Below are positions 4,930 to 40,265 of a stretch of 64,000 nucleotides of DNA, piece by piece. The first letter of the stretch is position 1, and each line of letters starts with the position of its first letter. The DNA is taken from the NCBI GenBank assembly GCA_900766735.1, contig CAAFWO010000052.1, forward strand, positions 58,539 to 122,538, written 5' to 3'. This DNA comes from Clostridia bacterium (lineage in GTDB: Bacteria > Bacillota > Clostridia > CAKSNL01 > HGM11501). The notes under the pieces were generated by a model. That model was not told the origin of the DNA. It worked only from the letters and a program-made list of their open reading frames with translations, and did no database searches. The position numbers and the translations under genes were made by a program.

Positions 4930-5052
4930 TTGAAAATTGAACGCTATGTAAACGGGAAAAAGATCACGTTTGACCAGATGAAAAGATACACCGTTAAGAA
5001 CAGGACCGTCGACGCGGCGGTCGAGCGCGTGATAAAACGCGAGAGCAGATGA
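4930..5052 (+). CDS. Hypothetical small basic protein (~40 aa, TTG start) translationally coupled to the serine recombinase
   Basis: An AAGAAGG RBS lies 8 nt before the TTG. Its stop overlaps the recombinase start (ATGA). It is not in the ORF track because of the TTG start. Confidence 0.3.
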   Translation: MKIERYVNGKKITFDQMKRYTVKNRTVDAAVERVIKRESR

Positions 5053-6401
5053 CGAAAAAGACGGCGCTTTATATAAGAGTGTCGACCGACGCACAGCGCG
5101 AGGAGGGCTATTCGATCGACGCGCAGAAGGAGATGCTTTCGGCCTTCTGCGTGTCGAAAAGAATCGAAAACCACGAGTTTTTCATCGACGGAGGCTTTTC
5201 CGGGAGCAACTTGGAGCGCCCGGAGATGAAAAGGCTCATCGCCGAGGCAAAGGAGAAAAAGATCTGCCGCGTCATCGTCTATAAGCTCGACCGACTGAGC
5301 CGAAGCCAGAGAGACACCCTTTATTTAATAGAAGAAATTTTTAATCCGAACGGGATCGACTTCGTTTCGATGAACGAGAGTATGGACACGTCGACTCCGC
5401 TCGGGCGGCTGATGCTCGGCATTCTCTCCGCCTTCGCGCAGTTGGAGCGTGAAAACATCAAGGAGCGCACGAGGATGGGAATGGCCGAGCGCGTCAAGGC
5501 CGGGTTCTGGCCTGGCGGCGGACGGGTGCCGTTCGGATATGACTATGACCCCGAAAAGGGGATACTTGTCCCAAACAGCGACGCACAGACCGTGAGGCTC
5601 ATCTATAACCTCTACATTTCGGGAACTCCGATGTATAAGATCGCAAAGACGGTCGGTCTTAAATATGAGCGCCTCGCGGTGCAGATACTAAAGCGCAAGT
5701 CCAACGCCGGCTACATCGTCTATAACGGCAAAGAATATAAAGGAAGGCACGAGCCGATTATAAGCGAGGAGACCTATAATGAAGCGATGGCGCTTATGGA
5801 GGAGCGCTCGAAAAAAAGGCTGACCGATTCTGAGTATCTGCTCTCGGGAATAGTCTACTGCGGAGTGTGCGGCGCTAAGATGCGCTATCAGAAGTGGGGG
5901 AAAAGCGGCGCAAAGCTCTGCTGTTACTCGAAGGACAAAAACAAGCCCTATCTTGTAAAGGACCCTGACTGCGACAACGAAAACGTCTGGGCGTCCGAAG
6001 TGGAGGACGCGGTGGTGGGCGACATTCTGGAGCTCTCATACAAGATCGAAAAGGGAGCTTTACCCGAGGCGGACATAACGGGCGCGCTTTCGGCGAAAAA
6101 GCTTCAGTGCGAGAAAAAGTTAAAAAGGCTCTATTCGCTCTATGCCGCGGACGGCGACGAGGTTTTAAAAAGCGCGATCGCCGAGGTGAAAAAGGAACTT
6201 GAAAAAGCCGAGGCGGCGCTTTCGGATGAAAAGAAGAAGGAGGCGGAGGCCAAAAAGCGCGAGGGCAAGAGGAAAAAGCTTGAAACGTTAAAGGACACAT
6301 GGGAGTTTATGACAGCAAAAGAGAAGAGAAACATCGTCCGCAGTCTGGTCTCAAAGGTCACCGTGACGCACGACACTGTGAAAATTGAGTATCTTTTGTA
6401 A
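5049..6401 (+). CDS. Large serine recombinase (resolvase catalytic domain, recombinase domain, zinc ribbon, coiled coil)
   Basis: N-terminal ALYIRVSTDAQ with the catalytic Ser, and a CGVCG...C...C zinc ribbon. The C-terminal coiled coil is K/E-rich. Confidence 0.85.
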   Translation: MTKKTALYIRVSTDAQREEGYSIDAQKEMLSAFCVSKRIENHEFFIDGGFSGSNLERPEMKRLIAEAKEKKICRVIVYKLDRLSRSQRDTLYLIEEIFNPNGIDFVSMNESMDTSTPLGRLMLGILSAFAQLERENIKERTRMGMAERVKAGFWPGGGRVPFGYDYDPEKGILVPNSDAQTVRLIYNLYISGTPMYKIAKTVGLKYERLAVQILKRKSNAGYIVYNGKEYKGRHEPIISEETYNEAMALMEERSKKRLTDSEYLLSGIVYCGVCGAKMRYQKWGKSGAKLCCYSKDKNKPYLVKDPDCDNENVWASEVEDAVVGDILELSYKIEKGALPEADITGALSAKKLQCEKKLKRLYSLYAADGDEVLKSAIAEVKKELEKAEAALSDEKKKEAEAKKREGKRKKLETLKDTWEFMTAKEKRNIVRSLVSKVTVTHDTVKIEYLL

Positions 6402-6523: not shown

Positions 6524-6552
6524 TTGATTTTTTGTGCATAATGGTATATAAT
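6524..6552 (+). promoter_or_regulatory. Sigma-A-type promoter (TTGATT-N17-TATAAT) for the 7-gene operon
   Basis: Near-consensus -35/-10 elements lie in the AT-rich spacer, ~110 nt upstream of the ATG at 6661. Confidence 0.45.
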
Positions 6553-6660
6553 AAAGTATGTACGTTTTTACCGGGCGGCTCTGCGCCCAAAAAACGCCGG
6601 AAAATGGGGGCCGGCGGGCAAAGAGCCGGGCAGATATTATTTTCTACAGGAGGTTTTAAA

Positions 6661-9600
6661 ATGACGTCAAGAAAAGCAACGGCGGTATTACTTGCTCTGC
6701 TTGTCACAGTGACAAGCTTTACGGCACTGCCCAAAGATGCAAAGGCGGCGGCGAGCACAAAATTCGAAGCGCTCGATTTTTCCTATGACCGCGACGACGT
6801 GTACACAAACTACATAAAGAAGTATGAGAATGCGGCTCATCCCGAGGTTGAGATTGCAGTTCCCGCGGCTTCTTTCGCGTCGGCGGCAAATCCGGAGACT
6901 GTGACCGGATATGCCGAGCTCGACGGGATGGAGAGTGTGCTCGAATTCGGAGAGGATGTTCAGTCCGTTACATATAATGTGAATATACCCCAGGAGGGTC
7001 TGTACAACATAAAGTACAGCATTAAGGGGCATGAAAATATCAAAAACGATATGGAGTTTGCTGTCAAGATAAACGGAGAATCGCCGTTTAACGAGGCAAT
7101 GACCATTCAGTCGCCCAGAGGATTCAAAAACTCGGACGAGGGATTTAAGGTCATCACCGACGAAGACAAAAACCGCACCGCGGAGTTTTCGCAGGACCGC
7201 GAAAACGATATGCGACCCAACCAGGAGAAGCTCTTAAAGTGGCGCACCGAATGGCTGGTCGATTCCGGCGGACTTATTGACGAACCCCTGTCGTTTTATT
7301 TTAATGCCGGTGAAAACACGATAACGTTTACGACTGTCGGCGAGCCTTTCTATATCGCCGGAATAACGCTTTGCCAGTATCACGCCCCCAAGGCATATGC
7401 GGAGGTTAAAAAAGAATATGACGCAAAGGGATATAAGCCTGCGACAAAGCAGTTCAAGGTTCAGGCCGAGACTGCGGACGAGTTTTCAGACTCCGCGCTT
7501 TATCCCATATCCGTGAGAAATAACGCTCAGATGGAGCCCCACCACACCAGCAAGACGAGAATCAACGCGGCCGGAGGTGCTAACTGGGGAAGCGCGAGAA
7601 GCTGGCTTCAGTGGACGATCGAGGCTCCGGAGTCCGGACTTTACGAAATGGCAATAAAGTTCCAGCAGAGCTCCTATGTCGGTATGAACGCGACAAGAAC
7701 GGTCTATGTTGACGGCGAGGTTCCTTATGAGGAGTTAAAGCACTTAAAGTTCGCATACGACTCCGGCTGGCAGGTTATGAAGACCGAGGATGAGTCCGGC
7801 GAGCCTTACTACATATATCTGTCCGAGGGTACGCATACTTTGAGAATGGAAGTTAACCTCGGCGAAATGTCCGCTATTATCGACAGACTGACGACGGTTA
7901 CATACCGCTTGAACAGCATATACAGCTCAGTTGTTATGCTTGCGTCTACGTCTCCCGATAAATACAGAGACTATTACTACGACAGAAGAATACCCAGCCT
8001 TATCGACGATCTTAAGTGGACAAGAGAAGAGATAAGCCAGATCAAGGAGTCCATCATCGAGGTTACCGGAACGTCGAGCTCGAAGACGGCGACGCTTGAA
8101 AGCTTTATCAATCAGCTTGACATTCTTATCGACGATCCGGATGAGTTCAGCAAGAGGCTTGAGGCGTTCAAGAACAACATCACCTCACTGAGTCAGTGGA
8201 TCATCGATAACAAGAGTCAGCCCGTTTCGCTTGACTACATCGTTTTCGGCCCGGCCGATATGAAGCTTGACAGAGCGGAAGCAGGATTCTTTAAGGGATT
8301 CTGGGAGGGTACGAAGACCTTCTTGGCATCGTTCGTCGAGGATTACAACGTAATCGGTGCGGTTGCCGGCGAGGGCAGAAAGGTCAAGGTATGGGTCAAC
8401 ACCGGCCGTGACCAGATCAACATCATCAACAACATGGTTAACGACGAGTTTACACCCGCAACCGGAATCAACGTTCAGCTTGAGCTCGTTCAGGGCTCGC
8501 TGATTGAGTCCACACTTGCCGGAAAGGGACCGGACGTTGCACTCATGATCGCGTCGGACCAGCCCGTAAACTATGCGATAAGAGGCGCGCTCGTAGATCT
8601 TTCACAGTTCGGGCCGCAGGATCTTGACGGAGACGGCAAGAACGAGGTCAACGGCTTTGCCGACGTTTATAAGAGATACAGCAGCCAGAACTTCGAGGGA
8701 TTTGCGTTCCAGATGAATTCCGACAAGGACAATGAAAAGGCTCACGAGGGCGAAGAGTGGACATGTGAGGCCTGCGGAACGGTGAACAACACCGGAATCT
8801 GCCCCACATGCGGATTTAAGAAATATTACGCATACTATGCCGTTCCCGAGACGCAGAATTTTAACATGATGTTCTACAGGAAGGACATTTTGGCAGAGCT
8901 CGGTCTCGGCGTTCCGAACACATGGGACGACTTTTATGCGATGCTTCCCGTGCTCAGAAGAAACAACCTTGAGGTCGGCGTTCCTTCGGGAACGATGTAT
9001 CAGATCCTCTTGTATCAGTACGGCGGAAGCTTCTATTCGGAGGATCGTCATAAGTCGGGACTCACGACGGACGCGGCAAAGGAAGCGTTTGTTGAGGTTT
9101 CGGATTGCTTCATTAAATATGACTTCCCGATAACCTTCAACTTCTACACGAGATTCAGAAGCGGCGAGATGCCGATCTCGATCCAGCCCTACACGCAGTA
9201 CAACCTGATCAATGCCGCGGCGCCCGAAATTCAGGGTCTGTGGGATATGACCAAGGTGCCCGGAACAAAGAGGGAGGACGGAAGCGTTGACTACGCGCAG
9301 AACGTTTCCTCCTCGGGCGCTATCATGTTTGAAAACACCAAGGACAAGGAAGCGGCGTGGGCATTTATCGAATGGTACACCAGAAACGATATGCAGACCC
9401 GTTACGGAACAGAGCTTGAGTCCATCATGGGCGCGGCCGGCCGTTATGCGGCGGCAAACACCGAGGCATTCCGCAACCTCGCGTGGACAAGACAGCAAAC
9501 GAGACTTTTGAGTGAGCAGATGGAAGACCTTGTCGGTGTTCCCGAAGTTCCCGGAAGCTATTTCATGGCAAGAACGATAACTCTTGCGTTCAACGACGCT

Positions 9601-9699
9601 TATATCGAGATGGAGAATCCCTATAAGGCATTGTCCGAGCGTGCTGAGGATCTTGACGATGAGATCGCGAGAAAGTACGAAGAGTTCGGATTATATTAA
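6661..9699 (+). CDS. Secreted ~1012-aa protein: an unknown ~500-aa N-terminal domain fused to an ABC-type extracellular solute-binding domain carrying a Cys4 zinc-ribbon insertion
   Basis: An AGGAGG RBS and a signal peptide (AKA-AAS). The C-terminal half resembles family-1 sugar SBPs. A CEACGx9CPTCG motif is embedded in it. Confidence 0.7.
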   Translation: MTSRKATAVLLALLVTVTSFTALPKDAKAAASTKFEALDFSYDRDDVYTNYIKKYENAAHPEVEIAVPAASFASAANPETVTGYAELDGMESVLEFGEDVQSVTYNVNIPQEGLYNIKYSIKGHENIKNDMEFAVKINGESPFNEAMTIQSPRGFKNSDEGFKVITDEDKNRTAEFSQDRENDMRPNQEKLLKWRTEWLVDSGGLIDEPLSFYFNAGENTITFTTVGEPFYIAGITLCQYHAPKAYAEVKKEYDAKGYKPATKQFKVQAETADEFSDSALYPISVRNNAQMEPHHTSKTRINAAGGANWGSARSWLQWTIEAPESGLYEMAIKFQQSSYVGMNATRTVYVDGEVPYEELKHLKFAYDSGWQVMKTEDESGEPYYIYLSEGTHTLRMEVNLGEMSAIIDRLTTVTYRLNSIYSSVVMLASTSPDKYRDYYYDRRIPSLIDDLKWTREEISQIKESIIEVTGTSSSKTATLESFINQLDILIDDPDEFSKRLEAFKNNITSLSQWIIDNKSQPVSLDYIVFGPADMKLDRAEAGFFKGFWEGTKTFLASFVEDYNVIGAVAGEGRKVKVWVNTGRDQINIINNMVNDEFTPATGINVQLELVQGSLIESTLAGKGPDVALMIASDQPVNYAIRGALVDLSQFGPQDLDGDGKNEVNGFADVYKRYSSQNFEGFAFQMNSDKDNEKAHEGEEWTCEACGTVNNTGICPTCGFKKYYAYYAVPETQNFNMMFYRKDILAELGLGVPNTWDDFYAMLPVLRRNNLEVGVPSGTMYQILLYQYGGSFYSEDRHKSGLTTDAAKEAFVEVSDCFIKYDFPITFNFYTRFRSGEMPISIQPYTQYNLINAAAPEIQGLWDMTKVPGTKREDGSVDYAQNVSSSGAIMFENTKDKEAAWAFIEWYTRNDMQTRYGTELESIMGAAGRYAAANTEAFRNLAWTRQQTRLLSEQMEDLVGVPEVPGSYFMARTITLAFNDAYIEMENPYKALSERAEDLDDEIARKYEEFGLY

Positions 9700-9714
9700 T
9701 AGGAGGTGTGGATT

Positions 9715-10653
9715 TTGTTTAACTTCATGAAAAAGAAAGACGACGTTCTCCCGAACGAGAACAAGAAGAATACATGGCTTGAGATCAAGAAGAATAAATC
9801 CAATTACCTTCTTATCGCTCCGTACATGATAATCTTCATCGTTTTCACGGTTATCCCGGTTGTGTCCTCGATGATCTTGAGTTTTACATATTTCAATATG
9901 TTCCAGTGGCCCGAATGGCGCGGCTGGCTTAACTACAGAAGGCTTTTCTTAGAGGACGATATTTTCCTGATCGGTCTTAAAAACACATTGATGTTCGCAT
10001 TCATTTTGGGACCGACAAGTTATGTGTGCTGTTTCTTCTTCGCATGGCTCATAAACGAGCTTCCACCCAAGGTCAGAGCATGTATGACGCTTTTATTCTA
10101 CGCGCCTTCGATGTGCTCTTCGATTTACACGATCTGGCTCTTCATCTTCAGCGGTGACGCCAACGGTCTTGTAAACTCATACCTTATGAAGTGGGACTGG
10201 ATAAGCTCTCCCATTCAGTGGTACACCGATACGGACTATAACGTTAAGGTCATAATCGTAATTCAGCTGTGGCTGAGCCTTGGAACAAGCTTTCTGTCCT
10301 TTATCGCCGGTTTCCAGTCGCTCGACAAAAGCTATTTCGAAGCAGGCGCGATCGACGGTATCAAGAACAGATTCCAGGAGCTTATCTATATCACCGTTCC
10401 GGCGATGCGTCCTCAGATGATGTTCGGCGCGGTTATGCAGATTGCAAGCTCATTCGGTATAGGACCGGTCTGCAGAACGCTTGCCGGATTCCCCAGTACA
10501 AACTACTCTCTGCGTACCATCGAGACGCATATTTACGACTACGGTACGACGAGATATGAGATGGGTTATGCGTCGGCGATAGCATTCTTCCTTTGCATAA
10601 TGATGATAGTGACCAGAAACCTGATGGCTAAGCTCATCAGAGTAGACGATTAA
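9715..10653 (+). CDS. ABC transporter permease (MalF/UgpA-like)
   Basis: Six TM helices and an EAA loop (EAGAIDGIKNRFQELIYITVPAMRP). The start is re-called to the TTG 8 nt after AGGAGG. Confidence 0.7.
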   Translation: MFNFMKKKDDVLPNENKKNTWLEIKKNKSNYLLIAPYMIIFIVFTVIPVVSSMILSFTYFNMFQWPEWRGWLNYRRLFLEDDIFLIGLKNTLMFAFILGPTSYVCCFFFAWLINELPPKVRACMTLLFYAPSMCSSIYTIWLFIFSGDANGLVNSYLMKWDWISSPIQWYTDTDYNVKVIIVIQLWLSLGTSFLSFIAGFQSLDKSYFEAGAIDGIKNRFQELIYITVPAMRPQMMFGAVMQIASSFGIGPVCRTLAGFPSTNYSLRTIETHIYDYGTTRYEMGYASAIAFFLCIMMIVTRNLMAKLIRVDD

Positions 10654-10670
10654 GAGAGGAGGGGAAACAC

Positions 10671-11636
10671 GTGGCAGAAACAATAATCACTGCGGAAAAC
10701 AAGGCGGTAAATATGAACGACCTTCCCGAAGAATTAAGGGAAAAAGTCACTCCGAAGCGAATGAGAGTCAGAAAGAAAAGGGTCAACCGTTCGCTTGGCG
10801 GCGACATCGGCGTTATATTACTGCTCACAATAATGGGTCTTTTCATGGGCGTTCCGCTTTACTACACGATAATTTCGGCATTCAAGCCTCTTAACGAGCT
10901 TTTCATTTTCCCACCGAGATTCTATGTATCACAGCCGACACTGTCAAACTTCAAGCAGGTATTTGACCTTGCGTCAAACCTCTGGGTTCCCTTCTCGAGA
11001 TACGTGTTCAACAGCATATTTGTCAGTGTTGTTGTAACAGTGGGGCACGTTATTTTGGCTTCGATGGCGGCCTATCCGCTTGAGAAAGCAAAGTTCCCCG
11101 GCTCAAAGGGACTGTTCTCGCTGGTTCAGCTCACACTTTTGTTCACCGGCGGAACGATGGCCATTCCGCTTTATGTCGTAATGGCTTATCTCGGACTTGT
11201 AAACTCCTATCTCGCGCTCATCCTTCCCGCACTCGGATCCAGCTTGGGCCTCTTCCTTATGAAGCAGTTCATGAGAGGTATTCCCAACTCGATGCTTGAG
11301 GCCGCGAAGATTGACGGTGCGAACGAATTAACAATCTTCTGGAAGCTGGTTATGCCGAACGTTAAGCCCGCATGGCTCACACTTTCGATATTCGCCTTCC
11401 AGTCGATATGGAACAACACAGGTAACAACTTCATTTATTCCGAGGAACTTAAGATGCTCCCGACAGCGCTCAACCAGATCTACGCAGCGGACGCCGCAAC
11501 AGGCGTCGGCAACGTTGCGCGTCAGGGAAGTGCGGCGGCAGTTGCACTCATACTTATGATACCGCCGATAATTTTCTTCGTGCTGACACAGAGTAATGTC
11601 ATCGAGACAATGGCATTCTCCGGAATGAAAGACTGA
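10671..11636 (+). CDS. ABC transporter permease (MalG/UgpE-like)
   Basis: EAA loop EAAKIDGANELTIFWKLVMPNVKPA. A GAGGAGGGG RBS precedes the GTG start. Confidence 0.75.
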   Translation: MAETIITAENKAVNMNDLPEELREKVTPKRMRVRKKRVNRSLGGDIGVILLLTIMGLFMGVPLYYTIISAFKPLNELFIFPPRFYVSQPTLSNFKQVFDLASNLWVPFSRYVFNSIFVSVVVTVGHVILASMAAYPLEKAKFPGSKGLFSLVQLTLLFTGGTMAIPLYVVMAYLGLVNSYLALILPALGSSLGLFLMKQFMRGIPNSMLEAAKIDGANELTIFWKLVMPNVKPAWLTLSIFAFQSIWNNTGNNFIYSEELKMLPTALNQIYAADAATGVGNVARQGSAAAVALILMIPPIIFFVLTQSNVIETMAFSGMKD

Positions 11637-11651
11637 TAGGAGGGAGAAAAG

Positions 11652-13763
11652 ATGGCTTTAAAATTAAAAATCAGAAAGGCCGCGAAAATTCTTTCCTGCC
11701 TCACACTGATAGCTGCAATCCTTTGTTCGGGTCTCACTGTTTTCGCAGACGAGCCCTATAAGGGATATAACTTCAACTTCTACGGCGAAGCTTCGGCACC
11801 TAACGGTTACCTTCCGGTGAAGGCATATAACGGCACCGAGTGGGGAGTGGGTTACCTTGAGAACCCGACCGATATGTATGTTGACAAATCGGGTTATCTT
11901 TACATATTGGATGCCGGAAACGGCCGTATTATCAAAACGGATTCAAACCTCAACCTTGTTTCGGTTATAGATACCTTTACGAAGGAGGACGGAACATTAA
12001 GTCCGCTCAACTCACCTCAGGGACTCACTGTAACGGCCGACGGAGAGATCTATATCTGCGATACCAATAATAACAGGGTCATCGTAACAAACCAGTCAGG
12101 CCAAATCAGAAAAGAATATTTCAAGCCCGAGTCTTCTCTTCTTTCGGAAACGCTTGTATTTCTTCCCAAGAAGATCGAAGTGACCGACACAGGCGATTTG
12201 TATATCATTGCCGACAATATCGTTGACGGCGCGCTTGTAATAACGGAAAACGGCGAGTATAAGGGTTATTTCGGAACGGACGCCGTAACACTTACCGAGG
12301 ATATGATGAAGGTCGTATTCTGGAGAATGTTCATGACCGATGAGCAGATTAAAAAAATGATGTCTCCTCAGCCCGTGCCGTTTGACAATATGTATTTGGA
12401 CGGTGACTTTTTATACACCGCAACGACATACATAAGAGATGAGGATCAGATCAGAAAGGTTAACCCCGCGGGAAATAACCTTTTTGCCGGCAATCAGTAC
12501 GGCGAGGCATACTCCGGCGGCCTCGGCAGCGGATATGAACAGGCTGCGTTCAACGACGTTAACGTTACGGACGAAGGATTTTTCTTCTGCCTTGACAAGA
12601 CCTTCTGCAAGATATTTATGTATAACCAGGATAACGAGCTTTTAACTATCTTCGGCGGAGACGGAGACAGGCTCGGAAGATTCGATATTCCGGTTGCGAT
12701 CGAGTCCATCGGAAGAAACGTTGTCGTGCTTGACACAGGCAAGAAAAACGTTACATTATTTGAGCCAACCTATTACGGTAATATGATAATGGACGGCTCC
12801 TACAGATATGAGCACGGCGATTACGAGGGCGCTCTGGAGCCCTGGAGCGAGGTATTAAAGCTCAACGTTAACTCCGAGCTTGCATACAGAGGTATCGCAA
12901 GAGCCGAATACTTAAAGGGCGAATACAAGGCGGCAATGGAGCATTACGCCGTTGCATACGATAACGACGGATATTCCGAGGCAAGACAGAAATACAGAGC
13001 CCAGTATATGGTCGATCACTTCTCTGTATTTATGGGCGTGATTTTAGTCATCGCGGTTGCGCTTTACGCATTTGCGAAAAACAAAAAGAAGATCTTAGCC
13101 AAGGTCGGCTTCGAGACGCTTGAAGAGACCGGATATGCCGGGATGAAGAAGTGGAAATATCCTTTCTACAACCTTCTTCACCCGAGCGACGGTATGAGCG
13201 AGATGCGCTATAACAAGAAAGAGTCGCTTCCGCTTGCAATCGCCTTTATTGCACTGTGGTACGTATCCGCGGTTGTAATAAGACAGTATGAGGACTACAT
13301 CTTCAATACGACAAATAAAAATGACATCAACATCTTTATGATACTTGCAACGACGGTCGGAATCGTTCTGGTCGGCTGCATCTCAAACTGGGCGATCACA
13401 ACACTCGTTGACGGTAAGGGAACGTTTAAGAACATCTTCATCTATGCTTCCTATTCACTCATCCCGTCGACCGTTGCGGCACTCATCGTAACATTCATCA
13501 GCCACTATATGATAAAGAACGAAGCGGTGTTTGTTCAGGCGATCTTATTTATCGGATATGCATGGACGGCGATACTTCTGTTTATCGGAATGATGAACGT
13601 GCACGACTTCACATTCAAAAAGGCGCTTCTTATGACACTGCTGACAGCGGTGGGAATGATTCTTATCGTGTTCCTCTTAATGCTTCTGACAGTGCTCTAC
13701 AGCCAGGTTGTAACATTCGTGTCGACCATTATGTATGAATTGTTCTATAAATTTGCTATATAG
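11652..13763 (+). CDS. Signal peptide, NHL-repeat beta-propeller, TPR-like segment and a C-terminal Yip1-like multi-TM domain, all fused in one protein
   Basis: NHL-like repeats (YLYILDAGNGRIIKTD, IYICDTNNNRVIV). The C-terminal ~250 aa has 5-6 TM helices typical of the Yip1/DUF1282 family. Confidence 0.6.
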   Translation: MALKLKIRKAAKILSCLTLIAAILCSGLTVFADEPYKGYNFNFYGEASAPNGYLPVKAYNGTEWGVGYLENPTDMYVDKSGYLYILDAGNGRIIKTDSNLNLVSVIDTFTKEDGTLSPLNSPQGLTVTADGEIYICDTNNNRVIVTNQSGQIRKEYFKPESSLLSETLVFLPKKIEVTDTGDLYIIADNIVDGALVITENGEYKGYFGTDAVTLTEDMMKVVFWRMFMTDEQIKKMMSPQPVPFDNMYLDGDFLYTATTYIRDEDQIRKVNPAGNNLFAGNQYGEAYSGGLGSGYEQAAFNDVNVTDEGFFFCLDKTFCKIFMYNQDNELLTIFGGDGDRLGRFDIPVAIESIGRNVVVLDTGKKNVTLFEPTYYGNMIMDGSYRYEHGDYEGALEPWSEVLKLNVNSELAYRGIARAEYLKGEYKAAMEHYAVAYDNDGYSEARQKYRAQYMVDHFSVFMGVILVIAVALYAFAKNKKKILAKVGFETLEETGYAGMKKWKYPFYNLLHPSDGMSEMRYNKKESLPLAIAFIALWYVSAVVIRQYEDYIFNTTNKNDINIFMILATTVGIVLVGCISNWAITTLVDGKGTFKNIFIYASYSLIPSTVAALIVTFISHYMIKNEAVFVQAILFIGYAWTAILLFIGMMNVHDFTFKKALLMTLLTAVGMILIVFLLMLLTVLYSQVVTFVSTIMYELFYKFAI

Positions 13764-13779
13764 GAAAGGAGAGAGCATT

Positions 13780-16245
13780 ATGAAAAAAATTATATCATGT
13801 TTACTTGCATTGACTCTCCTTGCGACCTTATTCACGGGAGTTATAATGGCGACCGGCGATGAATCCGCAAAGGCCGAAACTTCCGATACGGCAAAGGAAG
13901 AGACAAAAGAAGAAGCAAAGACTGAAGAAAAAACGGAAACCAAGACCGAAAGCACAGGGACTGCGGCACCTGCCGACGGCGCTGTGGAGGACGGAATGGT
14001 CAACGAGGACACGGTAAATGCATATGCTTCCGCTGTCCGCGCAAGAGCGGTCGATAACACAAGCATCGACCCGGCATTCACTCTCATCAGCGAGAATGAG
14101 TTCCTTGCGCTCTATGCGATCACCGACAACAGCCAGAAGAGGATCGGCGAGATACTCATTTTGGACAAGGCAACGGGCTATGTTTGGCGCAGTAACCCGA
14201 CGGACGCGGACGCGGACGTTATCGGCCAGTCTGCCGGCCACGCATATTACAGATCGAAGTCACAGCTCGTATTCTCCTATGCGCAGGGCTATAACTATTA
14301 CGACGCGAACAGCTACTATTCGTGCGTTGTGAACGACCTTGTGACCTGCACCGTCAATGCCGGAAAATCGGTTAAATTTCTCTATAAATTTGCCGACCTT
14401 AAGTTTGCCGTTCCGGTTGAATACAGCCTGGACTCCAACGGATTTAAGGCAGAGCTTCTCTTAAACGACAGCGACGCTAAGCTCACATACAGCGAAATAG
14501 GTTCGGTTTCGGCCGGAAACTTCGGTAAGGTTGAACAGCAGATCGACTATAACATCACCGAGATTAAACTTTTGCCCGCATTCGGCGCGACGAGCTATAA
14601 CGAAGACGGATACCTCTTCATTCCGGACGGAAGCGGAGCGCTCGTTTATTACAACAACGGCAAGGACAACATTCAGCAGCCTTACAGCGCGCCTGTCTAC
14701 GGCAACTATAAGGACAGCCAGTCCGAGGACTACAGAAAAGCGTCCGACAGATTTTACCTTCCCGTTTTCGGAACGGTTAAGAATGACGGTCACGCTTTGA
14801 TGGGTATCATCGAGGATAACGCTAACGTCGCATTCGTCAATGCGGAGGTAAGCGGTTACGAAACGGCATATAACAAAGTTTATTCTTCATACCTTCATAA
14901 GATCATAAAGAGTGCGGACAAACAGGGAACGGCACAGCCGATGTCCAAGGAGCTCCGCGACCCGGATAAGAATTACTCTGTCAAGTACTTCTGCCTCTCC
15001 GGCGACCAGGCGTCATATGTCGGAATGGCTAAGTTCTACAGAGAATATCTCATAGACAAGAAGGGAATGAAGAAGGCGGACGACCTTCGTGACGCGGCAC
15101 TCTTTTTGGATATGTATGCCGGCGTTGAGAAAAAGACCAGCATTCTCGGTATTCCGTGGAAGATATTCGACGTTATGACGACCTATGACGACATTATGTC
15201 GATCTCTGACGATATGACCGAGGCCGGAATCAACAACGTAGTGTTCAGATATAACGACTGGACAAAGAAGAAAAACAGAACGAAGGTTCAGAACAGACCG
15301 AACTTCGAAACTTCCATCGGCGGCAAAAAAGGATATGAAAAGGCGGCCGCTTATCTTGCCGGCAAGAATATGGGATTTTACTTGAATATTGACTTTATCA
15401 ACTATTCAAAGTCGGGTAACGGCTATTCGAGACTTTCGGATTCCGTTAAGTATCCCAACCAGGCCCCGGCATATCAGCAGAGCGGTATCACGGCTCATAT
15501 CAATATGGGTACGAGATGGTGCCTGTTAAAGTCGGACAAGGTTCGCGACGCGGCGATGAAATTTGCAGCAAAGTGCGAAAAGAACGGCATCACATCCGTA
15601 TCGCTTGAAAATTTCGGTAATGCGATCTATTCGGACGGTTCAAATAAGGGCGGTCTCACCAGAGGCCAGTGCATGAACAACTGGGAGGAGATCATCGCAG
15701 GCTATAAGGAGCAGGGCATGAACGTTTTGACCACTACACCGGACGCTTACGCCATCATCGATTCGGACGTGCTTTTGGAGATTCCTTCGAAGAGCACATA
15801 TGTCGAGATCGCGGACGAGGGCGTGCCCTTCTACCAGATCGTTGTAAGAGGATATAAGACCTATACCTCCGAAAACATCAATATGTCCAGCGTTCCCGAA
15901 GACATTATCTTAAATGCCGCCGAGACCGGAAGCAGTATTTTATACAGCTTGACGGCAGGCGACACGACGACCCTTAAAGAAACATATCTTAAATACTTAT
16001 ACAGCTGCAACTACTCAGATTGGAAGGATGATATTATTGAGGTCTACAAGAAGCTTTCCGGCACTCTTTCGACGGTTGACGGCCAGACGATCGAGAACCA
16101 CGAGAAGCTTGCCGAGGGACTTTACAGAACGACCTATTCCAACGGTGTTGCGATCTATGTAAACTATAACAAGTATGACATAACGGCCGAAAACGGAGTG
16201 ACCGTTCCGGCAAGAGATTATGTTGCGGAGAGGGGTGAGTGGTAA
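13780..16245 (+). CDS. Large secreted protein of unknown function (~820 aa) with a signal peptide and a K/E/T-rich linker
   Basis: A good RBS (GGAAAGGAGAG) and a signal peptide. No recognisable catalytic motif was found. Confidence 0.6.
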   Translation: MKKIISCLLALTLLATLFTGVIMATGDESAKAETSDTAKEETKEEAKTEEKTETKTESTGTAAPADGAVEDGMVNEDTVNAYASAVRARAVDNTSIDPAFTLISENEFLALYAITDNSQKRIGEILILDKATGYVWRSNPTDADADVIGQSAGHAYYRSKSQLVFSYAQGYNYYDANSYYSCVVNDLVTCTVNAGKSVKFLYKFADLKFAVPVEYSLDSNGFKAELLLNDSDAKLTYSEIGSVSAGNFGKVEQQIDYNITEIKLLPAFGATSYNEDGYLFIPDGSGALVYYNNGKDNIQQPYSAPVYGNYKDSQSEDYRKASDRFYLPVFGTVKNDGHALMGIIEDNANVAFVNAEVSGYETAYNKVYSSYLHKIIKSADKQGTAQPMSKELRDPDKNYSVKYFCLSGDQASYVGMAKFYREYLIDKKGMKKADDLRDAALFLDMYAGVEKKTSILGIPWKIFDVMTTYDDIMSISDDMTEAGINNVVFRYNDWTKKKNRTKVQNRPNFETSIGGKKGYEKAAAYLAGKNMGFYLNIDFINYSKSGNGYSRLSDSVKYPNQAPAYQQSGITAHINMGTRWCLLKSDKVRDAAMKFAAKCEKNGITSVSLENFGNAIYSDGSNKGGLTRGQCMNNWEEIIAGYKEQGMNVLTTTPDAYAIIDSDVLLEIPSKSTYVEIADEGVPFYQIVVRGYKTYTSENINMSSVPEDIILNAAETGSSILYSLTAGDTTTLKETYLKYLYSCNYSDWKDDIIEVYKKLSGTLSTVDGQTIENHEKLAEGLYRTTYSNGVAIYVNYNKYDITAENGVTVPARDYVAERGEW

Positions 16246-17270
16246 TGGAAAACAAAGAAAACGTGACTCCCGAAAAGGAGAACAAGGCTGACATTTTGGA
16301 TAAGCCCAAGCGCCTCACCAAAGAGGAGAGAGCGGCGATCCGCGAAGCTAATAAGAGAGCGGCGAAGAAGAGAAAAGCAGCCGCGGCGCTTTCCGAAAAG
16401 CAGGCAAGAGCGGGATATTGGTTCATTGCCCCCTGGATCGTCGGTGTGATATTCCTTTTCCTGATCCCCGTTGTAACTTCTTTGATCTATTCATTCTGCC
16501 GCGTCGGTGTCAGAGCCGGCGGCGCGAAGCTTAACTTCGTGGGATTGGATAACTACATTTACATTTTCACCAAGAGTGAAACTTTCCTTCCGGCACTCGC
16601 TGATTCGCTTAAGGATATGCTCTATCAGGTTCCGATTATCGCATTCTTCAGTATGTTCATTGCTCAGATATTGAACCAGAAGTTTGTCGGCAGGACCGCG
16701 GCGAGAATTATGTTCTTCCTGCCCGTTATCATTGCCTCCGGCGTTGTAATCGAAATTCTTACGAAAACAGGAATGAGCACAAACGTTAACTTAGGTCAGC
16801 AGTCGAATATCTTTACGTTCCAGGAGGAATCCGCGATACTTAAGATATTGAACCAGTCGGGCATCAGCCAGTCGGTAATCAACTATTTAAAGACATTGGT
16901 CAGCAACATTTTCGACATAACGTGGAAGAGCGGAATTCAGATCCTTCTGTATCTCTCGGCTCTTCAGGGAATTCCGAAGTCATATTACGAGGTTTCTTCG
17001 ATGGAGGGCGCGACCCCTTGGGAGGAGTACTGGAAGATCACCTTCCCGCTACTTTCACCCATGAGCCTTGTATGCGTTGTATACACCATAATCGATTCGT
17101 TCACCTACTACCAGAACTCGGTTATGCAGCTTATCGACTCTAACAATATGGCGAGCGGTAATGCCGGTATCGGCGCGGCGATCAGCTGGATATACTTCCT
17201 TATTATCGCCCTGATACTCGTGCTTATTGTGAAATTCGTGTTTGCAAAAACCGTTTATACTGAAGAATAG
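16245..17270 (+). CDS. ABC transporter permease (MalF-like) with a long basic N-terminal tail
   Basis: TAATG overlap with the upstream gene. TM topology and an EAA-like loop (LSALQGIPKSYYEVSSMEGATPWEE). Confidence 0.7.
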   Translation: MENKENVTPEKENKADILDKPKRLTKEERAAIREANKRAAKKRKAAAALSEKQARAGYWFIAPWIVGVIFLFLIPVVTSLIYSFCRVGVRAGGAKLNFVGLDNYIYIFTKSETFLPALADSLKDMLYQVPIIAFFSMFIAQILNQKFVGRTAARIMFFLPVIIASGVVIEILTKTGMSTNVNLGQQSNIFTFQEESAILKILNQSGISQSVINYLKTLVSNIFDITWKSGIQILLYLSALQGIPKSYYEVSSMEGATPWEEYWKITFPLLSPMSLVCVVYTIIDSFTYYQNSVMQLIDSNNMASGNAGIGAAISWIYFLIIALILVLIVKFVFAKTVYTEE

Positions 17271-17281
17271 GAGGTGCCGGA

Positions 17282-18340
17282 ATGAGACCTGAATTATCAA
17301 AACTTTCAAAAGAAGAATTTAAGCAGGAAATGAAACGCCGTGACGAAGAAATGAAATCCAGCGGCAAAAGCCACGGTATCGGCTTAAAACGTTTCGGCTC
17401 CGCATACTTCAAAAAACAGCTGATGCATGTGCTTTTCACAATTTTCCGTGCATTTTTGCTCATCGGTTTGTCCTACATCGTGCTCTATCCGGTATTCAGA
17501 ATGCTGAGCAAGGCGTTCAGCGAGGACTATGTTGCTTCGGCGACAAGCATCTGGATTCCCGACCATGTCGGAATGACAAACGTTAACTACGCGATGACGT
17601 TCTTAAATTACTGGCAGTCATTCTGGTGCAGCGTGAGAATTTCTCTCGGCAGTGCGATTTTGCAGGTTATCTCAAGCGCTGTGGTTGGATACGGATTTGC
17701 AAGATTCAAATTTAAGGGAAGAGGGCTTCTGTTCGGTCTTGTTATATTGACAATGATTATTCCGCCCCAGACCTATCTTGTATCACTCTTTATGATATAC
17801 AGAAAGTTTGATTTCTTCAAATTGCTCGCGATTCCCTCGCTGATAGCCGGTAAAAACCTTGGCATCAACCTGATCGGAACGTCGTGGACGATGTGGATTC
17901 CGGCAATACTTGGCGTCGGCTTAAGAGGCGGACTTTTCATCTACATATTCAGACAGTTCTTCAGAGGAATGAGCAAGGAGCTTGAGGAAGCCGCTTATAT
18001 CGACGGCTGCGGACCCTTCGGAACGTTCCTTCGAATTATGGCTCCCAACGCGCTTGCGTCGGGCCTGGTAGTTTTCCTGTTCTCACTCGTTTGGCACTGG
18101 AACGACTACTTCACAACTTCGGCTCTTTTCACATCTCCCAACAAGGCGAGACCGCTTTCACTGATTCTTATGGCAAAATACGGTGAGATCGGTATCACCT
18201 TCATGAGCTCGGACGATGTAAACAGTACATACATTCTGAACGCGGCGGCCCTCCTGGTCGTACTGCCGATGATAATCGTGTTTGCATTCACCCAGAGATA
18301 CTTTATCGAGAGCGTCGACAAGGTCGGCGTCAAGGGCTGA
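17282..18340 (+). CDS. ABC transporter permease (MalG-like)
   Basis: EAA loop EAAYIDGCGPFGTFLRIMAPNAL. The gene ends at a strong terminator. Confidence 0.75.
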   Translation: MRPELSKLSKEEFKQEMKRRDEEMKSSGKSHGIGLKRFGSAYFKKQLMHVLFTIFRAFLLIGLSYIVLYPVFRMLSKAFSEDYVASATSIWIPDHVGMTNVNYAMTFLNYWQSFWCSVRISLGSAILQVISSAVVGYGFARFKFKGRGLLFGLVILTMIIPPQTYLVSLFMIYRKFDFFKLLAIPSLIAGKNLGINLIGTSWTMWIPAILGVGLRGGLFIYIFRQFFRGMSKELEEAAYIDGCGPFGTFLRIMAPNALASGLVVFLFSLVWHWNDYFTTSALFTSPNKARPLSLILMAKYGEIGITFMSSDDVNSTYILNAAALLVVLPMIIVFAFTQRYFIESVDKVGVKG

Positions 18341-18353
18341 TCAAAAAATAAAA

Positions 18354-18386
18354 AGTACTGCAGCTTTAAGCTGCAGTACTTTTTTG
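18354..18386. terminator. Bidirectional rho-independent terminator (agtactgcagc-loop-gctgcagtact)
   Basis: A perfect 11-bp stem flanked by A- and T-runs, between convergent genes. Confidence 0.7.
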
Positions 18387-18392
18387 TATGCC

Positions 18393-19833: not shown

Positions 19834-21297
19834 TCAAGTTATTTTAGAGAAAAATATTATTTTTTTCTTCAAATACAGAAAATATACCGCAAACGAGTAC
19901 AAAATCAGCGCCGAAAAAAAGGAAATTGCCGAGGATAATGTGATGCCGAGCGAGGGAATAATAGATAAATAAAGGAAACGGCCGGCCGCAAACGAAAGAA
20001 GTGCGGGAACTGCCGGTGACGAGGAACGAAAGGCGGAGGACAAAGAAAGGCCGACTCCATCCGCCGCGGTTATAAAGCTCGGAATCAGGAAAACTATGTT
20101 TGAAAGCGCATATGCCGCGATGTAGCCGAAGACGCCGAGAAACGGCGTTAAAGCGACTGTGAGCAAAAGCTCGGCTATGTTTGAGGAAAACGCATAGAGG
20201 GAGGCTTTTTTCTCGCGCCCCGAAGCATTCATTACGGAATTTAATATGTGGCGGAAGGTCGCCGCAAGGCCGCCGGAGGCCATGATCGGCAAAAAGAGCG
20301 CGACTCTGGAATCGGAAAAGAGCACACAGGCGAAAAAGTTCCGGAACACGACCATAGCAAAAGTGCAGGGGAAAGCGAAAAGCGAAGTTATCAGGAGCAC
20401 CTTTTCGCATTTTCTTATCACTGCGCCGCGGTTGTTCTTTTTAAGGTTTTCGGAAATGAACGGCACCAAGTTCACCGTCACCGCATTCGTGAAAACGCAG
20501 GGCATATATAAAAGCGGCATTATCATTCCGCTGATGACGCCGAGCACCCCCGTCGCCTCGGCGCGTGTGAGGCCGTTTTTGGTCAGAAGGAACGGAATCA
20601 AAATGTTCGAGGCGGAAGATAAAATGCTTTCCGCCGTTTTGGACAGCGTCACCGGAAGGGCGATGTTAAAGATGCCGGAGCGCACAGGGCCGATGTGCCC
20701 GGCCTTTATTCCGGCGGTGTGTTTTTTATATGCGCCGGTGAGCATGGCCAGGCTCAAAAGCTCGCCTATAAATATCCCGAAGGTCAGCACCGCGGCCGAG
20801 AGCGTGATGTCGCCCTTTGAGAAAAAGACTAAGAGCAGGACGACGGAAAGCGTGCGAAGGAGCTGCTCGGAGATTTCGGTCACGGCCGGAATCTTCACGC
20901 ACCGGTCGGAATAAAAACTGCTTTTGTAGACGTTTTCAAAGCCGGTGATAAGAACCGCGAACGACAAAATGATGAGCGAGGGATAGGTTCTCTCATCGCC
21001 CAAAAAGCGCGAGAGCGGCCTTGCGAAAAAAAGAAGCAGGCAAAAAAGAACGAGCGAGACGTCGAGCACTAAAAAAAGCGCGGATCTCGTCACTGATTTT
21101 TTTAATGAAGCGGTTTCGGCCTCGGGAATCTTTTTCATCGCGGCGACGGGAATGCCGGAGGCGACAACGGCACAGCACACGGAGTACACCGGCATAACGA
21201 GCGCGAAAAGGCCGAGCCCCTCCGCGCCGATGAACCGGCTTATGAAAATGCGGTATAAAAACCCCGTCATCCGTGTGATAATATTAGCGCCGGTCAT
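19834..21297 (-). CDS. MOP-superfamily polysaccharide/lipid-II flippase (SpoVB/MurJ-like)
   Basis: ~14 TM helices. The N-terminus MTGANIITRMTGFLYRIFISRFIGAEGLG is typical of the SpoVB/MurJ family. Confidence 0.7.
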   Translation of the reverse strand: MTGANIITRMTGFLYRIFISRFIGAEGLGLFALVMPVYSVCCAVVASGIPVAAMKKIPEAETASLKKSVTRSALFLVLDVSLVLFCLLLFFARPLSRFLGDERTYPSLIILSFAVLITGFENVYKSSFYSDRCVKIPAVTEISEQLLRTLSVVLLLVFFSKGDITLSAAVLTFGIFIGELLSLAMLTGAYKKHTAGIKAGHIGPVRSGIFNIALPVTLSKTAESILSSASNILIPFLLTKNGLTRAEATGVLGVISGMIMPLLYMPCVFTNAVTVNLVPFISENLKKNNRGAVIRKCEKVLLITSLFAFPCTFAMVVFRNFFACVLFSDSRVALFLPIMASGGLAATFRHILNSVMNASGREKKASLYAFSSNIAELLLTVALTPFLGVFGYIAAYALSNIVFLIPSFITAADGVGLSLSSAFRSSSPAVPALLSFAAGRFLYLSIIPSLGITLSSAISFFSALILYSFAVYFLYLKKKIIFFSKIT

Positions 21298-23268: not shown

Positions 23269-23306
23269 TATTACCACAGTAGTAACCGACGAAAGGAGAG
23301 ATATTT

Positions 23307-25388
23307 TTGCCAAGAGAAATTGCGCTTGAAAAAACAAGAAATATCGGCATAATGGCTCACATCGACGCCGGAAAGACCACCACTACTGAGAGAATTTTGT
23401 ACTATTGCGGTAAAATTCATAAGATTGGTGATACTCACGATGGAGATGCAACCATGGACTACATGGAGCAGGAGAAGGAGAGAGGTATTACAATCACTTC
23501 TGCTGCGACAACAGCCTATTGGAAGGGCCATAGAATAAACATTATCGATACCCCCGGCCACGTTGACTTTACGGTTGAGGTTGAGCGCTCGTTGAGAGTT
23601 CTTGACGGAAGCGTAACGGTTTTCTGCGCTAAGGGCGGTGTTGAGCCCCAGTCTGAGACCGTTTGGCGCCAGGCTGACAGATACGGCGTTCCGAGAATGG
23701 CGTTCATCAACAAGATGGACATCATGGGCGCTGACTTTTACAACGTTGTACAGATGATGAAGGACAGACTTCAGTGCAAGGCTATCCCGCTTCAGCTGCC
23801 TATCGGTAAGGAAGATACCTTTAAGGGCATTATCGACCTTCTCACAATGAAGGCAGAGGTTTATTACAACGATGACGGTACCGACATAAGAGAAGAGGAA
23901 ATTCCCGAAGATATGAAGGAACTTGCCCAGGAGTATCATGACGCGGCTCTTGAAGAGATTGTTGCTTATGATGACGAGCTTATGGAAAGGTACTTCAACG
24001 GTGAAGAGATTCCCGTTGCCGACCTTAAGAAGGTTATAAGAAAGGCTACTATCTCCAACGAGATCGTTCCGGTATTCTGCGGAACGGCGTACAGAAACAA
24101 GGGTGTTCAGCCCCTTCTTGACGCTATCGTTGACTATATGCCCGCTCCGACAGACATTCCCGCTATCAAGGGTACAAACCTTGACGGTGAGGAGGAAGAC
24201 AGACATTCGAGCGATTCCGAGCCTTTCTCGGCTCTTGCATTCAAGATCATCGCCGATCCCTTTGTTGGTAAGCTTTGCTTCTTCAGAGTTTACTCCGGAA
24301 CGCTTTCTACAGGAAGCTACGTATTGAACTCCACGAAGGACAACAAGGAGAGAATCGGACGTATCCTTCGTATGCACGCCGATAAGAGAGAAGACCTTGA
24401 TATGGTATATGCAGGCGACATCGCCGCTGCCGTTGGTCTTAAAAACACCACAACGGGTGACACGCTCTGCGACGAGAATCATCCCGTTATACTTGAATCC
24501 ATGGAATTCCCCGAGCCTGTAATAAGGGTCGCAATCGAGCCCAAGACAAAAGCAGGTCAGGAGAAGATGGGTCTTGCCCTTGCAAGACTTGCCGAAGAAG
24601 ATCCCACCTTTAAGGCTTATACCGATGAGGAGACGGGACAGACGATCATCGCCGGAATGGGTGAGCTTCACTTGGAGATCATCGTTGACAGACTTCTCCG
24701 TGAATTCAAGGTTGAGGCAAACGTTGGTCAGCCTCAGGTTTCTTACAAAGAGACGATCAGCAAGAAAGTTGACATCGAGCACAAATACGCTCGTCAGTCC
24801 GGCGGTCGCGGTCAGTACGGTCATGTTAAGATGATCATGGAGCCGCAGGAAGCCGGCAAAGGATATGAATTCGTTAACCAGGTTGTCGGCGGTGCTATCC
24901 CGAAGGAATACATCCCGGCTGTTGACGCAGGTATCAGAGGCGCTATGGAGTCCGGTATACTTGCAGGATACCAGGTTGTTGACGTAAAGGTTACTCTTTA
25001 CGACGGATCTTATCACGAGGTCGACTCTTCGGAAATGGCGTTCAAGATCGCCGGCTCCATGGCCTTCAAAGAAGGTATGAAGAAGGCTGATCCGGTTCTT
25101 AAAGAGCCCATCATGAAGGTTGACGTTACGGTTCCCGAGGAATATATGGGCGACGTTATGGGCGACATCAGCTCGCGCCGCGGTATGATCCAGGGAAGCG
25201 AGACGAGAAACGGCGTTGTAACCGTTTCCGCTCAGGTTCCGCTTGCCGAGATGTTCGGCTATGCGACGGACCTTCGTTCCAGAACTCAGGGACGCGGTAA
25301 CTATTCTATGGAGCCCAGCCACTATGAAGTGGTTCCGAGAAGCATCATGGAAAAAATTATCGACCAGAGATCAAAAAAGAACGATTAA
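23307..25388 (+). CDS. fusA: Elongation factor G
   Basis: GTPase motifs AHIDAGKTT and DTPGHVDF. The length is 693 aa. Confidence 0.95.
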
Positions 25389-35428: not shown

Positions 35429-35448
35429 TATTTTAAGGAGGAATATTT

Positions 35449-40252: not shown

Positions 40253-40265
40253 AGGAGGGCGGAAT

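Follow-up and report, generated by a model that had tools for sequence, protein, structure and literature searches.

A conserved seven-gene cassette of Bacillota joins two CUT1-type permease pairs to large surface proteins and is probably a glycan capture and import system

What do two pairs of ATP-binding cassette (ABC) sugar permeases do in a single operon with three large extracytoplasmic proteins, and with no ATPase gene beside them? This question is raised by seven closely packed open reading frames (ORFs) on the + strand, which span positions 6661–18340 between a promoter-like site and a hairpin terminator in a stretch of 64,000 nucleotides from a Clostridia bacterium (GenBank assembly GCA_900766735.1, contig CAAFWO010000052.1, positions 58,539 to 122,538 of the forward strand). 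The stretch was analyzed as a whole and is referred to below as the window. We propose that the locus is a copy of a modular Bacillota cassette for the capture and import of glycans, in which two importers of the CUT1 family and a set of conserved accessory proteins would be powered by a shared ATPase encoded elsewhere, and we regard this reading as a probable one. Both the substrate and the mechanism are inferred from sequence, and the substrate probably differs between paralogous cassettes.

Start codons were refined using Shine-Dalgarno positions together with the gene calls on identical public contigs. The first gene encodes a giant substrate-binding protein (SBP; 6661–9699, 1012 aa) and is followed by permease F1 (9715–10653, 312 aa, MalF/UgpA type, with a mechanical ORF start at 9706), permease G1 (10671–11636, 321 aa, MalG/UgpE type), an NHL-TPR-Yip1 membrane accessory protein (11652–13763, 703 aa), a DUF5696 protein (13780–16245, 821 aa), permease F2 (16245–17270, 341 aa, MalF/UgpA type) and permease G2 (17282–18340, 352 aa, MalG type). 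In gene order, the intergenic gaps are 15, 17, 15, 16, −1 and 11 nt, the negative value reflecting an overlap of 1 nt between the F2 start and the DUF5696 stop codon, and each of the seven genes is preceded by an AGGAGG-like ribosome-binding site. An earlier reading of the bare sequence (hereafter the initial annotation) had described a tightly packed seven-gene operon, and the ORFs, with gaps of 11–17 nt and a single overlap, bear this out. Its further statements that the operon encodes two MalF/MalG-like permease pairs, that the 1012-aa protein contains an SBP domain and that the 703-aa protein combines NHL, TPR and Yip1 elements agree with the Pfam and, for the permeases, NCBIfam results given below.

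The arrangement is widely shared. A scan of one genome per species returned at least 586 loci with a relative of DUF5696, the best 80 of which were fetched with 10-kb flanks, and gene order was read by tblastn with nine modules taken from the window. The order SBP-N, SBP-C, F1, G1, NHL, Yip1, DUF5696, F2, G2 did not vary among the 68 loci whose flanks were long enough, each of them a full cassette, and the identities of F1 versus F2 and of G1 versus G2 were preserved from one cassette to the next. Sequence identity to the window proteins was about 50–58% for F1/G1, 35–44% for F2/G2 and 28–38% for the remaining proteins. Full cassettes were also present at the weakest checked matches of the first protein search (25% identity) and at loci reached from the side of the giant SBP, which was never seen outside a cassette among the loci checked. 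The hosts are Bacilli (Paenibacillus, Cohnella, Lederbergia, Gracilibacillus and 'Bacillus' caseinilyticus) and Clostridia (Oscillospiraceae, Ruminococcus, Acutalibacteraceae and Lachnospiraceae); single contigs of metagenome-assembled genomes (MAGs) labelled Selenomonadales and Treponema carry the cassette as well, and these labels need caution. Several genomes possess two or three cassettes, and the flanking genes are wholly different between genomes. Closest to the window are human gut metagenome contigs, one of them from a Hadza sample, that share the arrangement at 99% identity; among named relatives, MAGs of uncultured Clostridia and of Ruminococcus come nearest. On a broader scale, the DUF5696 profile detected 7,398 clusters at 50% identity in a collection of 1.84 billion representatives. 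The expectations that the seven genes travel together and that similar clusters exist elsewhere under DUF-type labels were therefore well founded, as the order held in Bacilli and Clostridia alike and the relatives carry only the labels 'DUF5696 domain-containing protein' or 'extracellular solute-binding protein'. The belief that none had been characterized also stands: no description of DUF5696 or of the cassette gene combination was found in the full-text literature searched, a body of text that leaves most subscription journals outside its coverage.

By every sequence feature tested, except for an ATPase gene, the transporter parts belong to the CUT1 family. Pfam detected BPD_transp_1 in all four permeases, with E = 2e-16 in G2 and a score of 23.5 bits in F2, the latter under the Pfam cut-off of 26.4, and F2 is still matched by the UgpA and MalF models. 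NCBIfam assigned F1 to UgpA/GlcT/MalF, F2 to UgpA/MalF, G1 to GlcU/UgpE/MalG and G2 to MalG/GlcU/UgpE. The EAA loops expected to couple to an ATPase lie at aa 209 in F1, aa 210 in G1, aa 249 in F2 (EAA-like) and aa 235 in G2. With 23% identity between F1 and F2 (blastp) and 26% between G1 and G2, the F1-G1 and F2-G2 pairs are, to judge from their sequences, old paralogs. The window offers one SBP gene for these two permease pairs, and a phmmer search with 43 ordinary cassette-linked SBPs revealed no second SBP among the window ORFs.

The absence of a nucleotide-binding subunit, remarked upon at first inspection, holds for the entire window, as neither a Walker A/LSGGQ pair in any frame of the 64 kb nor a tblastn match to a cassette-linked MalK-type ATPase was found there. 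Bacillota CUT1 importers commonly share an MsmX/MsmK-type ATPase encoded outside the operon and, by analogy with them, an operon that lacks an ATPase gene would be the normal state of affairs. Among the related loci, a MalK-type ATPase with an OB_MalK domain adjoins the cassette only in Paenibacillus lemnae (L004) and at one other locus (L076); the other tblastn candidates near cassettes, six in number when these two are included, were discarded as unrelated ABC proteins. Based on general knowledge of Bacillota CUT1 importers and on the two ATPase-linked relatives, we propose that the cassette depends on a shared ATPase of the MsmX/MalK type.

The giant SBP (110 kDa) has a Sec signal peptide without a lipobox, and is thus predicted to be exported and, by sequence, not lipid-anchored. 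Lipoprotein signals are also absent from most of its homologs, which begin instead with a signal peptide or an N-terminal anchor. Pfam SBP_bac_1 matches aa 589–912 (E = 8e-23), and the SBP_bac_1 and SBP_bac_8 matches together cover aa 589–917. In the AlphaFold2 (AF2) model, which has a pLDDT of 87, two β-sandwiches (about aa 65–240 and 265–400) are followed by a bundle of long helices (aa 403–518) and by a MalE-type binding domain (aa 574–1012). The top Foldseek matches are MalE-type oligosaccharide SBPs with target-normalized TM-scores of about 0.7–0.79, and the closest structures bind maltodextrin, cycloisomalto-oligosaccharides, β-1,2-gluco-oligosaccharides and cycloalternan, among others; in this search, run with the whole model, the SBP domain outweighed the rest, and nothing can be read from it about the N-terminal domains. 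The N-terminal half gave sub-threshold matches to Golvesin_C and to CBM_35 (20.2 bits, cut-off 28), a family of carbohydrate-binding modules (CBMs), and among 45 homologs CBM_35 was detected in 12, CBM_6 in 1 and Golvesin_C in 21 (E ≤ 0.01). The region, which the initial annotation had set down as an unknown N-domain, is thus described by model and profiles as two CBM6/35-like β-sandwiches, with a putative role in sugar binding, and a helical bundle.

Two homologs of the giant SBP, each of ~1470 aa, are fused at the N-terminus to a mannanase of glycoside hydrolase (GH) family 26 and a CBM35, and their full cassette is retained; one is encoded at 9111–13538 of locus L089 and the other is protein P0177. 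The SBP domain of the window protein additionally has a zinc-ribbon-like insertion, CxxC-x9-CxxC (8764–8811, aa 702–717), which is limited to the closest clade (≥69% identity) and is missing in more distant giant SBPs.

In the 703-aa protein a signal peptide is followed by a predicted extracytoplasmic NHL β-propeller, a TPR region, one transmembrane segment (aa 457–475) and a Yip1 domain with five transmembrane segments. Yip1 (PF04893) matched aa 508–675 with 66.5 bits against a cut-off of 28.6, and a hydropathy scan placed five hydrophobic segments at aa 525–681. The NHL model scored 42.7 bits (cut-off 20), with one repeat scored individually by Pfam, and TPR_16 was matched too; phmmer searches of the PDB returned NHL propellers, designed and natural, with E-values down to 1e-27 and as many as six matching segments, and also TPR proteins. 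Across 82 loci, the NHL-TPR-transmembrane part and the Yip1 part form a single gene in 38 and two adjacent genes in 44, a variation that argues for joint action of the two parts.

The 821-aa protein had been taken for a protein of unknown fold, which profile comparison, structure modeling and hhalign do not support. It matches Pfam DUF5696 (PF18952) almost end to end (E = 1.6e-154, 516 bits against a cut-off of 25.6, model positions 11–612 of 612). Its N-terminus is a hydrophobic anchor or signal peptide followed by a disordered stalk of ~50 aa rich in E, K and T, and the body of the AF2 model (pLDDT 85.7) consists of a β-sandwich, a (β/α)8 barrel and a C-terminal β-sandwich. A profile built from 45 members matched two structures in the PDB, 5opq (DagB, Zobellia galactanivorans ZGAL_3152; E = 1.8e-12) and 5wzn (NagBb, a GH129 enzyme; E = 5.8e-6). 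Foldseek ranked the same two first (E = 4e-33 and 7e-28), ahead of GH101 endo-α-N-acetylgalactosaminidases (about 1e-18), GH36 and GH31; DagB, NagBb and GH101 are the nearest known relatives. DagB-like proteins of Bacteroidota are themselves annotated with PF18952, and hhalign related them to the cassette proteins with 99.55% probability over 601 columns, at an identity to DagB of about 12–16%. DagB and DUF5696 also share the order β-sandwich, TIM barrel, β-sandwich (PMC5698469). By profile and by model, remote homology of DUF5696 to this glycosidase family (GH129-like DagB, GH101) is therefore established. The two differ in that DUF5696 of the cassette has a PDGSG loop where DagB has PQKQG, is predicted to be membrane-tethered, and belongs to a monoderm and to an ABC operon, whereas DagB-like genes lie in carrageenan polysaccharide utilization loci (PULs) of Bacteroidota with GH127 and sulfatase genes and without ABC genes.

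In one such locus, a Bacteroidales carrageenan-type PUL (L093), an SGL/NHL-type β-propeller gene (11607–12677) lies near the DagB-like DUF5696 gene, and a second propeller gene (7993–8874) is found just upstream of the GH26-fused giant SBP of L089. The association of propellers with DUF5696 could be a recurrent one or a coincidence.

The nearest ORF encodes an ordinary SBP upstream of 23 and downstream of 12 of 61 full cassettes; the clade of the window has no adjacent ordinary SBP. Genes for GH38 (6 loci), GH10 (4 loci), GH95, GH29, GH43, GH32, GH78 and GH13 enzymes are neighbors of related loci, as are those for pectate lyase and apiosidase-like enzymes, and AraC and sensor-kinase regulators occur. 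Considering these GH, AraC and SBP neighbors together with the GH26-fused giant SBPs, the capture and import of a polymer-derived substrate, one of the two roles put forward in the initial annotation, is the favored one.

Additional information came from half cassettes, observed at loci L061 and L085 and probably at L042, which lack the giant SBP, F1 and G1 and consist of NHL-Yip1, a longer DUF5696, F2 and G2, with 1–3 ordinary SBP genes after them. They suggest that F2-G2 works with ordinary SBPs and the two accessory proteins, and that giant SBP-F1-G1 is an added module. The half cassettes extend over 6772–16495 in L061 and 6733–17898 in L085, with an N-terminal extension of ~300 aa in DUF5696, and that of L061 adjoins pectate lyase and apiosidase-like genes. 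In two distant full cassettes, genes for a GFO_IDH_MocA oxidoreductase, an AP_endonuc_2 protein (sugar isomerase-like), an AraC regulator and a MatE protein lie downstream (15898–20268 in L001, a Clostridia MAG, and 15196–20724 in L003, Lederbergia panacisoli), a possible sign that some copies are tied to an oxidative sugar pathway.

Cumulatively, these observations are consistent with a cassette in which the CBM-like sandwiches of the giant SBP, carried on the helical spacer, would catch a polymeric or long oligomeric glycan and the MalE-type domain would pass oligosaccharide to F1-G1. DUF5696, tethered by its anchor and flexible stalk, would act at the membrane surface, either trimming the captured glycan or simply holding it. 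The NHL-TPR-Yip1 protein would be a membrane scaffold that keeps the non-lipidated giant SBP and DUF5696 beside the permeases, a role suggested by the fusion and fission pattern of its two parts and by its invariant position. F2-G2 would be a second importer for a different product, served in other genomes by the ordinary SBP beside the cassette; in the genome of the window its SBP may be encoded elsewhere, or the giant SBP may serve both importers. A shared MalK/MsmX-type ATPase from outside the window would power all four permeases.

Several points weigh against this reading, the first being the state of the residues on which catalysis would depend. DagB is an exo-α-1,3-(3,6-anhydro)-D-galactosidase that is inactivated by mutation of D202, D486, E517 or E531, and its D486 is the counterpart of D435 in NagBb (PMC5698469). 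Because a barrel-only profile searched against the PDB aligned just β1–β2 to NagBb, we used a profile-profile alignment with DagB-like sequences, the DagB residues being carried over first to a 77%-identical homolog, whose numbering is offset by a constant 27 residues, and from there along the hhalign alignment. None of the four is kept at the aligned columns of the window protein, which instead has S/A304-305, N612, a Thr near 653 and L667 (822-aa numbering); E611 and E668 in the same numbering are each one position away from an aligned catalytic column, and at 16% identity an alignment error of one or two residues is possible. The same columns are variable across 85 cassette DUF5696 proteins, the nucleophile (D486) column being Asp in about 40% of them, in the motif 'SLRDLG', and Asn in the window protein. 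Conserved polar residues lie elsewhere (821-aa numbering), namely D619 (89%), E715 (95%), N701 (93%) and H774 (92%), together with D283 in the invariant PDGSG loop of the N-domain, the 100% conservation of which is partly by construction since PDGSG was the retrieval pattern. Since the catalytic residues are not retained, DUF5696 is not classed here as a GH129 enzyme; its glycosidase homology is established, its catalytic competence is not, and it may not be a hydrolase. Second, the window copy lies among housekeeping genes, with no ordinary SBP, glycoside hydrolase or regulator next to it, and in this setting it resembles a nutrient locus less than the Paenibacillus copies do. Third, the related loci were retrieved through the DUF5696 motif, so that distant architectures are under-sampled. 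Finally, the glycan role is a prediction from sequences and structure models.

The first of these points gives weight to a capture-only variant of the cassette, which we hold to be a possible explanation, if clearly the less probable one. Here DUF5696 would descend from a glycosidase but have lost catalysis and would only bind glycans, whether in the manner of a lectin-like receptor or by standing in as the binding protein of F2-G2, and the cassette would import what other enzymes have cut. The unconserved catalytic positions, with an Asn in the nucleophile column of the window protein, speak for it, as does a diverse alignment of 45 sequences in which the sole acidic residue conserved at ≥90% is the Asp of the PDGSG loop; the very different GH families beside the cassettes argue against one fixed linkage specificity, and F2-G2 has no second SBP within the window. 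Set against this, an active site could have been relocated to the conserved D619, E715, N701 and H774, which lie within the barrel or close to it, and the one-residue displacement of E611 and E668 from the catalytic columns is within alignment error.

A bolder version of the capture and import reading can also be formulated, in which all seven proteins and the shared ATPase would form one membrane supercomplex and hence a new class of ABC import machine. Yip1 would bridge the two permease dimers, and the NHL/TPR ectodomain would dock the giant SBP and the tethered DUF5696. This we think rather unlikely. If true, the supercomplex would physically couple polymer capture, processing and import, would amount to the functional equivalent, in a monoderm, of the Sus utilisome of Bacteroidota, and would give a bacterial Yip1 protein its first defined role in an importer.

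Much further down in probability comes the idea that the cassette serves the envelope, recycling or remodeling a glycopolymer of the cell itself, such as an exopolysaccharide, a secondary cell-wall polymer or a spore-related glycan. In the window the operon does stand alone among housekeeping genes with neither regulator nor glycoside hydrolase, the promoter of its first gene looks constitutive, and the opposite strand encodes, 1.5 kb downstream, a Polysacc_synt flippase-type protein (19834–21297). However, this flippase neighbor is not conserved in other loci, where copies instead form part of loci for plant or host glycans that have GH10, GH38, GH95, GH29 and GH26, and the paralogous copies per genome and patchy distribution are typical of nutrient systems. 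More improbable still is the signaling role that the initial annotation had named as the other option, according to which the complex would sense an extracellular glycan and transport would be secondary. NHL propellers are the extracellular sensor domains of PknD-type kinases, one of the PDB matches of the 703-aa protein, and at a few of the related loci the flanks contain histidine kinase and response regulator genes. Yet the conserved core has no kinase, regulator, cyclase or DNA-binding domain, regulators occur in a minority of flanks and are of the AraC and two-component types that normally control sugar operons, and all four permeases keep the EAA loops for ATPase coupling. The least credible explanation is chance adjacency of two independent sugar ABC importers and two unrelated surface-protein genes, for although both permease pairs make up complete MalF/MalG-type dimers with EAA loops and neighboring sugar transporter operons are common in Bacillota, the order is the same in 68 of 68 loci at 25–35% protein identity and in differing genomic contexts, the genes are separated by 11–17 nt or overlap by 1 nt, the giant SBP is never outside the cassette in the loci checked, and NHL-Yip1 and DUF5696 are always between the permease pairs.

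Comparison with known systems helps to place the capture and import cassette that we favor. With CUT1 importers, such as MalEFGK2 of E. coli and the MsmX-dependent importers of B. subtilis, it shares MalF and MalG permeases, EAA loops and an SBP domain of the MalE fold. It differs from them in having two non-identical permease pairs in one operon, a non-lipoprotein SBP of 1012 aa equipped with two CBM-like domains and a helical spacer, and NHL-TPR-Yip1 and DUF5696 genes inserted between the permease pairs; we know of no characterized CUT1 system with dual permease pairs, a giant CBM-SBP or NHL-TPR-Yip1/DUF5696 genes. The ABC transporter YknWXYZ of B. subtilis includes a membrane protein of the Yip1 family, YknW, as an accessory subunit, and by analogy this system may serve as a precedent, in an exporter, for a Yip1 protein working with an ABC transporter; YknXYZ is a MacB-type exporter for toxin resistance, not a type I importer, and YknW has no NHL or TPR ectodomain. 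The Sus-like utilisomes and the PULs of Roseburia and Eubacterium are comparable in that they co-encode carbohydrate-binding modules, a glycosidase-fold protein and a transporter, a likeness that extends to paralogous copies beside varied glycoside hydrolases. The cassette has no homology to the signature parts of either, SusC and SusD included; it uses an ABC importer as its transporter, and its core is a fixed order of seven genes with no regulator. Moreover, the window locus falls outside the usual definition of a Gram-positive PUL, which calls for a degradative enzyme, a transporter and a regulator; a regulator and a carbohydrate-active enzyme do adjoin some of its relatives. The resemblance is to a possible way of working and not one of group membership.

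As for the signals that bracket the operon, a sigma-70-type promoter-like site, TTGATT-17-TATAAT (6524–6552, + strand), was picked up by a consensus scan with 10 of 12 positions matching and lies 109 nt upstream of the first start codon. Such sites are no rarer than chance in this region (23 observed against 17.4 expected), and a single strong promoter for the operon, as originally described, is for this reason plausible but not demonstrated. The other half of that description, a strong terminator, was upheld: a terminator scan and direct reading of the sequence located an intrinsic terminator at 18350–18390 (assigned to neither strand), comprising a perfect 16-bp hairpin (18350–18384) with an A run on one side and a T run on the other, and it should therefore act in both directions. 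The 109-nt leader gave no credible Rfam match, its single hit being a eukaryotic scaRNA far under threshold, and its folding energy was no better than that of shuffled sequence (z = −0.56).

Upstream of the operon lie genes for MatE, Sua5 and TsaD and then a large serine recombinase, and downstream those for an ACT-domain protein, UDG and the Polysacc_synt flippase-type protein, and further on for S7, EF-G, EF-Tu, hydrogenase-like proteins, MutS and MutL. Pfam searches of 20 other ORFs of the window found housekeeping genes only, and neither a regulator nor a recognized glycoside hydrolase adjoins the operon within the window. The serine recombinase (5049–6401, + strand, 450 aa; Resolvase, Recombinase and Zn_ribbon_recom domains) is directly 5' of the operon, and this arrangement recurs in three independent metagenome contigs. 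Relatives at 56–67% identity have PrmC-DUF1385 upstream in place of the recombinase, and on this ground the cassette may have been relocated to its present site. An invertible promoter beside the recombinase was considered and rejected, as no convincing inverted repeats flank the promoter.

Other features of the window were noted in passing. An 892-aa ORF without a Pfam match (37574–40252, + strand) is followed by a gene for a 517-aa protein (40158–41711, + strand) with F5/8 type C (discoidin) and Cu_amine_oxidN1 domains, and the two may form a surface-protein pair. At 32593–36873 (+ strand), two [FeFe]-hydrogenase-like genes (Fe_hyd_lg_C and Fe-S domains) are placed around a SpoIIE/PP2C-type phosphatase gene, a layout that recalls sensory hydrogenase regulatory modules. 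A 683-aa ORF (23271–25322, − strand) antisense to the EF-G gene (23307–25388) is most likely a codon-bias artifact and no gene.

Bacillota dominate the fermentation of fiber and host glycans in gut and soil, and their uptake of such glycans is far less understood than the Sus systems of Bacteroidota. The cassette described here is widespread and strictly conserved, is present in human gut Clostridia and is experimentally tractable in Paenibacillus; carriers that can be cultivated include Paenibacillus baekrokdamisoli, P. terrigena, Lederbergia panacisoli and Cohnella xylanilytica. It offers a test of whether ABC importers can form part of larger capture machines. If its workings were solved, DUF5696 and the bacterial Yip1/NHL proteins would have functions assigned to them, and the cassette would then mark glycan-foraging capacity in the genomes of uncultured Clostridia.

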